Source of the DNA: Escherichia coli
Lineage (GTDB): Bacteria > Pseudomonadota > Gammaproteobacteria > Enterobacterales > Enterobacteriaceae
Direction: 5' to 3' (one strand)
Assembly (NCBI RefSeq): GCF_013315695.1
Contig: NZ_CP054353.1
Length of the DNA stretch: 64,000 bases
Below are positions 47,501 through 53,500 of this stretch, piece by piece (within the stretch, counting starts at the first letter, position 1; every line of letters starts with the position of its first letter). The position numbers were made by a program.

Positions 47501-50500
47501 TCACTTACACCGCTTCTCAACCCGGTACGCACCAGAAAATCATTGATATGGCCATGAATGGCGTTGGATGCCGGGCAACAGCCCGCATTATGGGCGTTGG
47601 CCTCAACACGATTTTACGTCACTTAAAAAACTCAGGCCGCAGTCGGTAACCTCGCGCATACAGCCGGGCAGTGACGTCATCGTCTGCGCGGAAATGGACG
47701 AACAGTGGGGCTATGTCGGGGCTAAATCGCGCCAGCGCTGGCTGTTTTACGCGTATGACAGGCTCCGGAAGACGGTTGTTGCGCACGTATTCGGTGAACG
47801 CACTATGGCGACGCTGGGGCGTCTTATGAGCCTGCTGTCACCCTTTGACGTGGTGATATGGATGACGGATGGCTGGCCGCTGTATGAATCCCGCCTGAAG
47901 GGAAAGCTGCACGTAATCAGCAAGCGATATACGCAGCGAATTGAGCGGCATAACCTGAATCTGAGGCAGCACCTGGCACGGCTGGGACGGAAGTCGCTGT
48001 CGTTCTCAAAATCGGTGGAGCTGCATGACAAAGTCATCGGGCATTATCTGAACATAAAACACTATCAATAAGTTGGAGTCATTACCTAGATACCACAGGT
48101 TTCTGGCATGACGATTTTAATAACGCCACGCCGAACGATATTTGCGTGGCAATTCGTAGCGAAGCGGCGGATGCGGGGATCGCGCAGGCGGTTATGCAGC
48201 AGCTTGAAGAGGCGCTAAAACAACTGGCGCAGGGTTCAGGCAGCAGCCAGGCGTTGACGCAGGTGCGTCGCTGGGACAGTGCCTGTCAGAAATTACCCGA
48301 TGCCAGTCTGGCGCTGATTTCAGTGGCTGGTGAGTATGCGGCGGAGCTGGCGAACCAGGCGCTGGATCGCAACCTCAACGTGATGATGTTCTCCGATAAC
48401 GTCACGCTGGAAGATGAAATCCAACTTAAAACCCGCGCGCGGGAAAAAGGCTTGCTGGTGATGGGGCCGGACTGCGGTACATCGATGATTGCCGCCACGC
48501 CGCTGGCTTTTGCTAACGTGATGCCGGAAGGCAACATTGGCGTCATTGGCGCTTCCGGTACCGGGATTCAGGAGCTGTGCTCACAGATTGCGCTGGCAGG
48601 GGAGGGAATTACTCATGCGATTGGCCTTGGCGGGCGCGACCTCAGCCGTGAAGTGGGCGGCATCAGTGCGCTGACGGCGCTGGAAATGCTCAGTGCAGAC
48701 GAGAAAAGCGAAGTGCTGGCATTTGTTTCAAAACCACCTGCCGAAGCTGTGCGTCTGAAAATTGTTAATGCCATGAAAGCAACTGGCAAACCGACGGTGG
48801 CGCTGTTTTTAGGTTATACCCCGGCGGTGGCCCGCGACGAGAATGTCTGGTTTGCCTCCTCGCTGGATGAGGCCGCACGCCTGGCTTGTCTGCTTTCACG
48901 CGTCACTGCGCGACGTAACGCGATAGCGCCTGTCAGCAGCGGATTTATTTGCGGTTTGTATACCGGCGGTACGCTGGCTGCTGAAGCTGCGGGATTACTT
49001 GCCGGACACCTTGGCGTGGAAGCCGACGATACCCATCAACATGGCATGATGCTCGACGCCGACGGACATCAGATCCTCGACCTGGGCGATGATTTTTACA
49101 CCGTCGGGCGTCCCCATCCGATGATCGACCCGACCTTACGCAACCTGTTAATTGCCGATCTCGGCGCTAAACCGCAAGTGCGAGTGTTGCTGCTTGATGT
49201 GGTGATTGGCTTCGGTGCGACCGCCGATCCTGCCGCCTCGCTGGTGAGCGCCTGGCAAAAAGCCTGTGCCGCGCGTTCAGACAATCAACCACTGTATGCC
49301 ATTGCCACGGTGACAGGCACTGAACGTGACCCGCAATGCCGCTCGCAGCAAATCGCCACGCTGGAAGATGCGGGGATCGCGGTAGTGAGTTCGCTACCGG
49401 AAGCCACCTTGCTGGCTGCGGCGTTAATTCATCCGCTCTCGCCTGCCACACAGCAACACACACCGTCATTACTGGAAAACGTCGCCGTGATTAACATCGG
49501 ATTACGCAGCTTTGCGCTGGAGCTACAAAGCGCCAGCAAACCGGTTGTGCATTACCAATGGTCGCCAGTCGCCGGTGGCAATAAAAAACTGGCTCGTTTA
49601 TTAGAACGTTTGCAATAAGGGGTTCCCATGTTTACATCAGTGGCGCAAGCCAATGCTGCGGTTATCGAACAAATTCGTCGCGCTCGTCCACACTGGCTGG
49701 ATGTGCAACCGGCTTCTTCACTTATCAGCGAACTAAACAAGGGCAAAACACTGCTTCACGCCGGGCCGCCAATGCGCTGGCAGGAGATGACCGGACCCAT
49801 GAAAGGGGCGTGCGTGGGCGCATGTCTGTTCGAAGGCTGGGCGAAAGATGAAGCGCAGGCGCTGGCAATACTGGAGCAGGGGGAAGTGAACTTCATTCCT
49901 TGTCACCATGTGAATGCCGTCGGGCCAATGGGCGGCATTACTTCTGCCAGTATGCCGATGCTGGTGGTTGAGAACGTGACCGACGGCAACCGGGCGTACT
50001 GCAACCTCAACGAAGGTATCGGCAAAGTGATGCGTTTTGGCGCTTACGGCGAAGATGTCCTGACTCGCCATCGCTGGATGCGCGATGTGTTAATGCCAGT
50101 ATTAAGCGCGGCGCTGGGGCGCATGGAGCGCGGTATCGATCTCACCGCGATGATGGCACAGGGCATTACCATGGGCGATGAGTTCCATCAGCGCAACATT
50201 GCATCCTCAGCACTGTTGATGCGCGCGCTGGCCCCACAAATTGCTCGCCTCAATCACGATAAACAGCACATCGCGGAAGTGATGGATTTCCTCAGCGTGA
50301 CCGATCAGTTCTTCCTCAACCTCGCGATGGCTTACTGCAAGGCGGCGATGGATGCAGGCGCGATGATCCGCGCAGGCAGCATCGTCACGGCTATGACCCG
50401 CAACGGCAATATGTTCGGGATTCGGGTAAGCGGGCTGGGTGAACGCTGGTTTACTGCGCCTGTAAACACTCCGCAAGGTCTGTTTTTCACCGGCTTCTCG

Positions 50501-53500
50501 CAGGAGCAGGCGAACCCGGATATGGGCGATAGCGCGATTACCGAAACCTTTGGTATCGGTGGTGCGGCAATGATCGCAGCCCCTGGCGTAACACGCTTTG
50601 TCGGTGCGGGTGGCATGGAAGCGGCCAGAGCGGTATCTGAAGAGATGGCGGAAATCTTCCTTGAACGCAATATGCAGTTGCAGATCCCCGGCTGGGATTT
50701 CCAGGGCGCGTGCCTGGGGCTGGACATTCGTCGCGTGGTAGAAACCGGCATTACGCCACTCATCAATACCGGTATCGCCCATAAAGAGGCGGGGATCGGG
50801 CAGATTGGCGCAGGCACCGTGCGGGCACCGCTGGCGTGCTTTGAACAGGCGCTGGAAGCACTGGCTGCAAGCATGGGTATTGCTTGAGGAACACGCAATG
50901 ACAATCATCCATCCTCTGCTTGCCAGCCGTAGCGCACCGAATTATCGCCAGTCCTGGCGGTTAGCGGGCGTGTGGCGGCGGGCGATTAACCTGATGACGG
51001 AAAGCGGCGAACTGTTAACGCTGCATCGTCAGGGGAGTGGTTTCGGCCCCGGAGGATGGGTGCTTCGCCGCGCGCAATTCGATGCGTTATGCGGTGGATT
51101 ATGCGGCAATGAACGACCACAGGTTGTGGCTCAAGGCATTCGCCTCGGACGTTTCACGGTTAAACAGCCACAGCGTTATTGTTTGCTGCGTATTACGCCG
51201 CCTGCGCATCCTCAACCGCTTGCAGCTGCATGGATGCAACGCGCGGAGGAAACCGGGCTTTTCGGGCCACTGGCGATGGCGGCAAGCGATCCGCTGCCTG
51301 CTGAGTTACGCCAGTTTCGTCACTGTTTTCAGGCCGCGCTCAATGGCGTTAAGACCGACTGGCGGCACTGGCTGGGTAAAGGCCCAGGATTAACGCCAAG
51401 TCATGATGACACGCTGAGCGGAATGCTGCTGGCGGCCTGGTATTATGGCGCTTTAGATGCGCGCTCCGGTCGCCCGTTTTTTGCCTGTTCCGACAATCTT
51501 CAACTCGTTACCACAGCGGTGAGCGTCAGTTATTTACGTTATGCCGCGCAAGGATATTTCGCCTCGCCACTCCTGCACTTTGTTCATGCTCTGAGTTGCC
51601 CGAAACGTACCGCTGTTGCGATTGATTCGCTGCTGGTGCTGGGGCATACGTCAGGGGCAGATACGCTGCTGGGGTTCTGGCTTGGCCAACAATTATTACA
51701 AGGAAAACCATGAAAACACTGGTTGTGGCTCTTGGGGGCAACGCCTTACTCCAGCGCGGCGAAGCGCTGACGGCAGAAAATCAATATCGCAATATTGCCA
51801 GTGCTGTACCCGCGTTGACGCGCCTGGCCCGTTCTTATCGGCTGGCGATTGTTCACGGCAACGGGCCACAGGTGGGGCTGTTGGCGTTACAGAATCTGGC
51901 GTGGAAAGAGGTCGAACCGTATCCGCTGGATGTACTGGTGGCGGAAAGTCAGGGGATGATTGGCTATATGCTGGCGCAGAGCTTGAGCGCACAGCCGCAG
52001 ATGCCGCCTGTGACGACGGTGCTGACGCGCATTGAAGTTTCGCCTGATGATCCGGCGTTTTTGCAGCCAGAGAAATTTATCGGTCCGGTTTATCAGCCAG
52101 AAGAACAAGAGGCACTGGAAGCGGCTTACGGCTGGCAGATGAAACGTGATGGTAAATACTTGCGCCGGGTGGTGGCATCTCCGCAACCGCGTAAAATTCT
52201 CGACAGCGAAGCCATTGAGTTGTTGCTCAAAGAGGGGCATGTGGTGATTTGCAGTGGCGGCGGCGGTGTGCCTGTGACGAAAGACGGGGCAGGGAGTGAA
52301 GCAGTGATTGATAAAGATCTCGCCGCTGCGTTGCTCGCCGAGCAGATTAATGCCGATGGACTGGTGATCCTCACCGATGCTGATGCGGTATATGAAAACT
52401 GGGGAACGCCGCAGCAACGTGCCATTCGCCGTGCCACACCGGATGAGTTAGCGCCATTTGCCAAAGCCGATGGTTCGATGGGGCCGAAGGTAACGGCGGT
52501 GAGTGGCTATGTCAGAAGCCGTGGTAAACCCGCGTGGATTGGGGCGTTATCGCGGATTGAAGAGACGCTGGCGGGCGAAGCGGGGACTTGTATTTCGCTG
52601 TAGTGATGGGCACCAGGCAATTGGCACATCTAGCCTGATGCGATGCTGGCGCGTCTTATCAGGTCTACAGGCGGTGTCGGAACGGTAGGCCGGATAAGGC
52701 GTTCACGCCGCATCCGGCAATCGGCACACCATGCCTGATGCGATGCTGGCGCATCTTATCAGGCCTACAGTCGGTGTTGGAACGGTAGGCCTGATAAGGC
52801 GTTCACGCCGCATGCGGCAAGAAAATGAGCATCAATTAACTGAACTTGCTCTGCGCCCACATCACGCCGCTGGCATACTCTGGCGGCAGCAGCGGGATTA
52901 AGGCTTCCAGCGTCGCGGTCAGACGCGATGTGTCGCTGTCGGTCAAATTCAGATGCCCCACTTTACGCCCCGGACGGACTTCTTTGTCGTACCAGTGCAG
53001 ATGCACCAGCGGCAGTTTCAGCCAGTCATAATTCACATCGCTACCAATCAGGTTGATCATCACCGACGGACTATTCACTACTGGTTGCGGTAACGGCAGA
53101 TCGGTAATCGCCCGCAGATGCAGCTCAAACTGGCTGATGCTGGCACCGTTTTGTGTCCAGTGACCGCTGTTATGCACACGCGGAGCCAGTTCGTTGATCA
53201 GCAGACCTTGCGGGGTGACAAAACACTCCATCGCCATCACGCCCACATAGCCCAGCTCCTGCATAATCGCCGACAGCATCTCTTCGGCCTGCGCCTGCTG
53301 CTGCGCGTTGGCCTGCGGGAAAGCGACGCTGGTGCGCAAAATACCGTCCTGATGCAGGTTATGCGTCAGCGGATAAAACACGGTGCTACCATCAAAGCCG
53401 CGCGCGCCAACCAGCGACACTTCACCAGAGAAGTTTATGCCCTGCTCGACAATACATTCGCCGTAGCATTCAGCCGGTAACTGTTCGGTTTCATCGGCGC

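Follow-up and report, generated by a model that had tools for sequence, protein, structure and literature searches.

In the window analysed here (a 64,000-nucleotide stretch of Escherichia coli DNA), the gene ylbE forms an open reading frame next to a truncated fdrA and an IS1 element. The first-pass annotation took this frame for a functional ancestral gene that E. coli K-12 MG1655 carries only as two fragments. The locus therefore raises two questions: does the intact ylbE set this strain apart from K-12, and does an intact frame here mean a working gene? The features that bear on these questions are the following.

46203–47318, plus strand: glxK without its last 30 nt, the frame continuing into IS1 with a stop at 47345 (K-12 BLAST, NCBIfam)
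47319–48086, plus strand: IS1 of 768 bp whose insA/insB read in the direction of fdrA, at the deletion junction (terminal inverted repeats, length)
48087–49618, plus strand: remnant of fdrA (allF), starting at K-12 nt 137 (K-12 alignment, NCBIfam)
49628–50887, plus strand: ylbE (allG), the AllG subunit of oxamic transcarbamylase (ORF, Pfam AllG (PF06545/DUF1116), K-12 alignment, PDB 3CLQ)
49879–49883, plus strand: run of five G residues at ylbE nt 252–256, whose four-G version is the site of the old K-12 pseudogene annotation (sequence comparison, PMC4404585)
50898–51713, plus strand: ylbF (allH), intact, 271 aa (Pfam PF11392 AllH, E = 2.1e-28; collinear with K-12)
51710–52603, plus strand: ybcF (allK), a catabolic carbamate kinase, intact, 297 aa (NCBIfam NF006926 carbamate kinase, E = 3.6e-186)

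The ylbE frame itself is as the first reading described it, a single intact ORF with good start context: the ORF listing gives 419 uninterrupted residues between an ATG start and a TGA stop, and a Shine-Dalgarno-like AAGGGG lies 5 nt 5' of the ATG (local sequence TAAGGGGTTCCCATG). The TAA that ends the fdrA remnant and this motif overlap, which places the remnant and ylbE in a translationally coupled layout. The product covers the whole Pfam profile PF06545, 'Oxamate carbamoyltransferase subunit AllG' (positions 1–215 of 215; 325.6 bits with a cut-off of 27; E = 1.7e-97); the NCBIfam profile search returned no model matching YlbE or YlbF, both of which Pfam does match. This ORF is far beyond chance. 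The gene stands between the fdrA remnant and ylbF/ybcF, and the operon order of fdrA remnant, ylbE, ylbF (PF11392 AllH) and ybcF (carbamate kinase) is kept, with allF truncated at its 5' end. The gene in the window is simply E. coli ylbE in its usual intact state, now renamed allG.

That ylbE has the ancestral full-length form is also upheld, the product being collinear both with K-12 AllG and with a 421-aa Enterococcus-type homolog, PDB 3CLQ. The latter, a solved DUF1116 homolog entered as 'Uncharacterized protein', aligns over query residues 2–416 and chain positions 7–420 (E = 2e-111); it is a distant ortholog to which the PDB entry assigns no function, and its collinearity with YlbE shows that the single-ORF architecture of roughly 420 aa is ancestral.

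The supposed contrast with K-12 does not hold. In the current reference NC_000913.3, ylbE (b4572, YP_009029994.1) is one intact 1260-bp CDS at 548357–549616, and the K-12 MG1655 protein (UniProt P77129; EC 2.1.3.5 subunit) has the same 419 residues in length, the same place between fdrA and ylbF and the same PF06545 domain. Aligning the two genes, the very check proposed for the two-fragment claim, gave 29 substitutions and no indels over 1260 nt in each (97.7% nucleotide identity), and 413 of the 419 residues are identical (98.6%). The six K-12-to-window replacements (E38K, D209N, Y344F, S355G, E414A, G419A) fall at sites that look variable, since the query and 3CLQ also differ at each of them on the printed alignment. 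The window also differs from K-12 in context, with a truncated allF and the deletion of the promoter and of allE, allC and allD.

The old two-fragment annotation of K-12 evidently stemmed from one missing G in a superseded reference sequence. It concerned the same locus with a break at the G run, whereas the frames of the window and of current K-12 are open: both carry GGGGG at nt 252–256, and the four-G version, hence the K-12-type frameshift, is absent from the window gene as it is from NC_000913.3. Removing one G from the run in silico splits the gene into an 86-aa fragment and a 344-codon open segment. Two reports on resequenced MG1655 stocks (PMC5460176, PMC4404585) describe two changes that together restore the ORF, one a +G at about ylbE nt 253 and the other silent, at nt 114. 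In PMC5460176, breseq comparison with the old reference lists 547,694 A>G and 547,831 +G in the 'ylbE pseudogene'; PMC4404585 gives base 253 as the insertion site and calls the variation common to the usual MG1655 stocks.

An intact ylbE is in any case the norm in E. coli and not special. At least 80% of the gene is present in 5417 of 5426 complete genomes, with most of it missing from the other 9; five complete genomes carry it at 100% nucleotide identity, the others at 96–98.4%. In an evenly spaced sample of 60 genomes, the query is aligned over its full length in 59 rows, 58 of them at exactly 1260 nt, with one row spanning 1259 nt and one partial match.

If the gene itself is ordinary, its surroundings are not. 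The truncation of fdrA beside IS1, noted at the first reading, is confirmed by alignment to K-12, but more has happened than that description conveys: 3.8 kb has been deleted. IS1 stands in place of 3812 bp of the K-12 layout: window position 47318 corresponds to position 5004 of the K-12 locus and 48087 to 8817, so that the interval 5005–8816 is missing. With it went the last 30 nt of glxK, the genes allE, allC and allD, the fdrA promoter region and fdrA nt 1–136; the whole allD–fdrA intergenic region (K-12 locus 8365–8680) lies within the deleted interval.

The element at the junction is a complete IS1 with imperfect terminal inverted repeats, its ends reading GGTGATGCTGCCAACTTACTGAT and GGTAATGACTCCAACTTATTGAT (reverse complement), and it encodes a 91-aa InsA and a 167-aa InsB' ORF. 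It is 100% identical to a second copy in the window, at 22817–23584. That second copy has a target duplication, TGAATCATT, whereas no 9-bp duplication surrounds the copy at 47319–48086 (flanks ...CCTGCGCC and TAGATACC...), as expected after an adjacent deletion. A related assembly (L004, GCA_900448625.1) carries an identical IS1 (0 differences in 768), with the Pfam domains Zn_ribbon_InsA, HTH_Tnp_IS1 and DDE_Tnp_IS1, at the same glxK site; there it is flanked by the 9-bp duplication GCCTGCGCC, and allECD-fdrA is intact. This simple insertion at the same site points to an IS1-mediated adjacent deletion in the window as the most likely mechanism, in which an IS1 resident at the 3' end of glxK would have deleted the 3.8 kb to its right. 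The outcome resembles classical IS1 adjacent deletions in that the complete 768-bp element is kept at its fixed glxK end, the right-hand 9-bp duplication is lost with the contiguous DNA and the new junction is AT-rich. Alternatively, two directly repeated IS1 copies could have recombined to produce the deletion, without intramolecular transposition; both routes lead to the same final sequence.

The deletion looks recent, since the window and E. coli MS 21-1 show only 3 differences over the 15.9 kb downstream of the junction. A 120-nt probe for the exact IS1-fdrA junction found no contiguous full-identity match among the 5426 complete E. coli genomes; its 19 matches covering at least 80% are either joined from two pieces or in one piece at 93%, and come from other nearby IS1 insertions (two of them were inspected).

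The genes on either side bear the marks of this event. The glxK alignment ends at position 5004 of the K-12 locus, where the K-12 gene extends to 5034; the NCBIfam glycerate kinase model still matches residues 1–372 of 381, and the protein look-up returned no exact match to the glxK-IS1 fusion. Missing from the fdrA remnant are the first 45 codons, the start codon and the promoter region further upstream; the remnant matches the NCBIfam FdrA model at positions 67–555 of 555 and retains the CoA_binding and Ligase_CoA domains. Its first in-frame start is a GTG at 48146 without an obvious Shine-Dalgarno sequence. The 490-aa product from this GTG had no exact match in the protein look-up; the 474-aa product from an ATG was matched exactly in four contigs, only one of which (L014) has the window's junction. 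Downstream, ylbF differs from K-12 by 13 synonymous and 3 nonsynonymous codons, and ybcF by 25 and 4.

What this loss entails follows from the published role of the operon. In K-12, oxamic transcarbamylase (EC 2.1.3.5) has been shown to be encoded by three genes, as AllF-AllG-AllH, with AllG the 46-kDa subunit. This enzyme, which completes the anaerobic degradation of allantoin, converts oxalurate and phosphate to oxamate and carbamoyl phosphate; the carbamoyl phosphate is then used by AllK (YbcF), whose function is described in PMC9843812, to make ATP. Each of AllF, AllG and AllH is required for activity, and the allG of K-12 MG1655 is experimentally functional: oxamate was 0 mM in allF and in allG single mutants and 1.2 mM in an allH mutant, as against 17.7 mM in the wild type (PMC11326118). 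The four genes are co-transcribed, from a common promoter that the authors place upstream of fdrA (PMC9843812).

Set against this, the subunit set in the window is incomplete, with allG and allH whole but allF/fdrA missing nt 1–136 including the start codon, and the native promoter upstream of fdrA, induced by allantoin and anaerobiosis, is gone. A consensus promoter scan of 47200–52800 found a single plus-strand promoter-like site upstream of ylbE, that of IS1 itself; the total number of sites equals that expected by chance, and weak internal promoters are compatible with this result. The allG-allH-allK genes would thus be cut off from their native promoter, with neither a complete AllF to pair with nor the enzymes that supply oxalurate, and these losses most likely leave ylbE an orphan, intact but probably with no role in this strain. 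The frame would still be open because the deletion is very recent. Of the proposal that ylbE is a functional ancestral gene, then, the ancestral form stands and the word functional is doubtful, given the deletion of the promoter, allF nt 1–136 and allE-allC-allD in a system where allF, allG and allH are all needed. Taken as a whole, we regard as highly probable the account of a normal allG, intact in K-12 as well, that was orphaned by a recent IS1 deletion immediately upstream.

Could the operon nevertheless be active? IS1 and the operon have the same orientation, so that read-through from the element might drive some transcription of allG-allH-allK, all three of which are intact. A shortened AllF (from the GTG at 48146 or an ATG at 48194) might then join AllG and AllH in an enzyme that is active or partly active, for example on external oxalurate or in the reverse direction. 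Partial function of the remnant is conceivable given the two domains that it keeps, and gene callers do call the 474-aa product from such remnants. We consider this unlikely. At least 45 N-terminal residues of AllF are gone, or 65 or 81 with the available starts, and in full-length homologs these belong to the N-terminal domain PF27530 HMA_AllF_N; the candidate starts lack an obvious Shine-Dalgarno sequence, and with allE, allC and allD deleted no oxalurate would come from allantoin. IS1 insertions are, moreover, classically polar on genes downstream.

A broader possibility is raised by the finding of at least five distinct IS1-fdrA junctions, with the right end of IS1 at fdrA nt 50, 128, 137, 148 and 174, beyond which ylbE and ylbF (and ybcF where the contig reaches it) are called or annotated as full-length. 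Beyond serving as an AT-rich IS1 target, the fdrA/allF 5' end could be a recurrent breakpoint where E. coli lineages have independently lost allECD together with the first part of allF and kept allG-allH-allK. If so, the retained genes might act without AllF, or the loss of anaerobic allantoin catabolism might be advantageous. This seems quite improbable to us: the junctions lie within a 450-bp AT-rich stretch (GC 26–42%, compared with about 58% in the flanks), IS1 prefers AT-rich targets, and the clustering fits that preference and is explained without selection.

Poorer still are the prospects of the stronger form of this idea, that AllG, AllH and AllK serve a function for which neither AllF nor allantoin is needed, and that selection preserves their genes through repeated losses of the allECD-fdrA 5' region. 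The same five or more junctions that spare the downstream genes, the rarity of genomes lacking most of ylbE and a table entry listing ylbE as 'induced by NO' (PMC5907409) would fit it. Against it, the AT-rich target already accounts for the clustering, intact genes say nothing about selection after a deletion as recent as the window's, and we found no AllF-independent activity reported in the literature.

Least probable of all is the reading from which we started, a functional ylbE retained here and frameshifted in K-12 as a meaningful strain difference, for although the window frame is open and older K-12 references had the gene as a pseudogene (PMC5460176), NC_000913.3 has the 419-aa gene intact, the G run is common to both strains, the extra G is common to the usual MG1655 stocks (PMC4404585), MG1655 no longer produces oxamate once allG is deleted (PMC11326118), and it is the window that lacks the promoter and a complete allF.

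The probably orphaned allG illustrates that an intact ORF in this genome is not the same as a working gene. The gain is largely confined to getting the annotation right: the gene should go by the name allG, and its intactness should not be presented as setting the strain notably apart from K-12. Having lost allE, allC, allD, the promoter and the start of allF, the strain is predicted to be unable to run the anaerobic branch from allantoin to oxamate, and the recurrence of IS1 junctions within fdrA nt 1–175 is a modest but instructive case of an IS1 hotspot driving the loss of a metabolic pathway.

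The ylbE gene (now allG) is present in the window as a single uninterrupted open reading frame, exactly as the first-pass annotation had described it:

49628..50887, + strand: ylbE (allG) ORF, ATG start, 419 aa, TGA stop (ORF listing)

Its start region reads TAAGGGGTTCCCATG. An AAGGGG Shine-Dalgarno-like motif lies 5 nt 5' of the ATG, bearing out the good start context that had been noted, and overlaps the TAA stop of the upstream gene, an arrangement suggestive of translational coupling. Nor is the ORF a chance one, since it matches Pfam PF06545 (title now 'Oxamate carbamoyltransferase subunit AllG'; 325.6 bits, E 1.7e-97) and its product matches the solved structure 3CLQ (E 2e-111), with residues 2-416 collinear.

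The first-pass annotation also held that K-12 ylbE is broken into two fragments by a frameshift, and had named an intact K-12 gene in current annotation as the observation that would speak against this. Such a gene is what we found: NC_000913.3, the current MG1655 RefSeq record, carries ylbE as one 1260-bp CDS (548357-549616; b4572, YP_009029994.1), and the claim therefore falls on its own terms. Compared position by position, the window and K-12 genes differ by 29 substitutions and 0 indels, with 23 synonymous and 6 nonsynonymous codon differences, the latter giving 6 amino-acid changes. The split-gene description has a real origin in variants called against an older reference. MG1655 derivatives mapped on that reference show 547,694 A>G and 547,831 +G, labelled 'ylbE pseudogene' (PMC5460176), and two changes in ylbE, a silent substitution at position 114 and a single inserted nucleotide at base 253, are known variations of common MG1655 stocks (PMC4404585). 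A GGGGG run occupies ylbE nt 252-256 in both the window and NC_000913.3. Deleting one G from it in silico reproduces the old two-fragment picture, with codon 87 becoming a stop (86-aa fragment) and a 344-codon segment open in another frame. The K-12 gene is functional, because deletion of allG from MG1655 abolishes oxamate production from allantoin (PMC11326118).

Intact ylbE is the default state in E. coli. A match was found in 5420 of 5426 complete E. coli genomes and covered at least 80% of the gene in 5417. Among 60 genomes taken at even steps along the ranking for a closer look, 59 rows aligned over the full query, 58 of these at exactly 1260 nt; one row measured 1259 nt and one was a partial match. 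All sampled rows were labelled as DUF1116-domain or YlbE-family protein.

Neither the gene nor its function is new. Oxamic transcarbamylase, long an orphan enzyme, was shown by Kim and Kim (AEM 2024) to be encoded jointly by fdrA, ylbE and ylbF, which they renamed allF, allG and allH; in the anaerobic breakdown of allantoin it forms oxamate and carbamoyl phosphate from oxalurate and phosphate (PMC11326118). Purified AllF-AllG-AllH was active, and oxamate fell from 17.7 mM in the wild type to 0 mM on single deletion of allF or allG and to 1.2 mM on deletion of allH (PMC11326118). The common promoter, induced by allantoin under anaerobiosis, was assigned to AT-rich DNA 5' of fdrA, and ybcF (allK) encodes the catabolic carbamate kinase (PMC9843812). 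By homology, the neighbours of ylbE in the window are consistent with this published allFGHK layout: the upstream ORF matches positions 67-555 of 555 of the NCBIfam FdrA model, and downstream lie ORFs with matches to AllH in Pfam and to carbamate kinase in NCBIfam.

The head of this operon is missing from the window, and a complete insertion sequence lies in its place:

46203-47318: IS1 flank, glxK side
47319-48086, oriented towards fdrA: complete IS1, 768 bp, with terminal inverted repeats and insA/insB ORFs
48087-49618: IS1 flank, fdrA side

In BLAST against the K-12 locus, window 42315-47318 corresponds to locus 1-5004 and the match resumes at window 48087 from locus 8817, so that 3812 bp of the K-12 layout are absent. 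The missing DNA comprises the last 30 nt of glxK, allE, allC, allD, the allD-fdrA intergenic region where the operon promoter was placed, and fdrA nt 1-136; fdrA is thus truncated beside IS1, as had been proposed. No target duplication was found at the flanks of this IS1. A related assembly, GCA_900448625.1, encodes a YlbE protein identical to that of the window and carries IS1 at the same glxK position (0/768 bp differences), bordered by the 9-bp duplication GCCTGCGCC, with allE-allC-allD-fdrA all present. From its sequence, this arrangement looks like a precursor of the deletion: an IS1-mediated adjacent deletion from the resident glxK copy would leave the structure of the window. The product would be the same if the resident copy had recombined with another IS1 lying in fdrA. 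Metagenome contig L014 (ENA ERZ27238783) has the identical junction, with 1 mismatch in 6.5 kb, and the deletion allele is therefore present in other samples.

The first start codons of the fdrA remnant are GTG 48146 (K-12 residue 66) and then ATG 48194, neither with an obvious Shine-Dalgarno site. The remnant keeps the CoA_binding and Ligase_CoA domains; the N-terminal region, which in full-length homologs is given as PF27530 HMA_AllF_N, is cut. In a promoter scan of 47200-52800, the sole + strand promoter-like site upstream of ylbE sits inside the IS1 left end, and the overall number of sites was not above chance. We infer that allG is an orphan in this strain, because the native promoter is lost, AllF is incomplete and the oxalurate-making enzymes are gone. 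Of the 'functional ancestral form' originally proposed for ylbE, intactness and ancestral architecture hold, and 'functional' is doubtful. The window is ~99.97% identical to E. coli MS 21-1, with only 3 differing positions in the 15.9 kb downstream of the junction, which argues that the deletion is recent; the intact ylbE is therefore uninformative on selection.

Several other differences were seen, mostly relative to MS 21-1. A second IS1 (22817-23584), which matches the first at 100% identity and points the same way, is bordered by the 9-bp target duplication TGAATCATT and is not in MS 21-1, where the site falls within a small hypothetical gene, close to one for a YadA-family adhesin. The two direct copies flank ~24 kb that include the greater part of the all/gcl cluster still present, and recombination between them could delete it. 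An uninterrupted 6119-aa ORF (375-18734) encodes a SiiE/BapA-like giant adhesin, whose MS 21-1 counterpart contains an internal stop and is annotated as a pseudogene; repeat number also differs between the two, with extra sequence at ~11727-12991 and ~300 bp fewer near 16180-16200. The adjacent type I secretion permease/ATPase gene (18738-20896), a single 2163-bp gene in MS 21-1, has a 4-nt deletion at ~19385 and is present as two ORFs, of 221 and 498 aa; the adhesin is thus open here, yet its exporter looks frameshifted. The fimbrial usher gene sfmD (61006-63615) is an intact 869-aa ORF; MS 21-1 has one C fewer at window 62866 and is annotated as frameshifted.

The junction in fdrA is one of five, from different lineages, that place an IS1 right end within the first 175 nt of the gene (window equivalent ~48087-48125) and are independent of one another.

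Position of the IS1 right end in fdrA
nt 50: strain W21, glxR'-IS1-fdrA'
nt 128: STEC2018-553, target duplication 128-136, most of the all region gone
nt 137: this window and L014
nt 148: Logan contig L016
nt 174: ENA contig L015

Full-length CDSs are annotated for ylbE, ylbF and ybcF in W21 and STEC2018-553. Gene calls in L015 and L016 give full-length ylbE and ylbF in both; the ybcF call is 296 aa long in L015, and in L016 the gene runs off the end of the contig. In a further sequence (L009) IS1 is reversed and lies at -89 of fdrA, adjoining an aadA/dfrA integron/IS26 island. In K-12, GC content from ~280 bp upstream of fdrA to ~nt 170 is 26-42%, versus ~58% on either side, and IS1 prefers AT-rich targets. 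The clustering is thus most simply explained by a target hotspot, with no need to assume selection. The AT-rich 5' end of fdrA is probably an IS1 hotspot, at which the allFGHK operon has been repeatedly decapitated.
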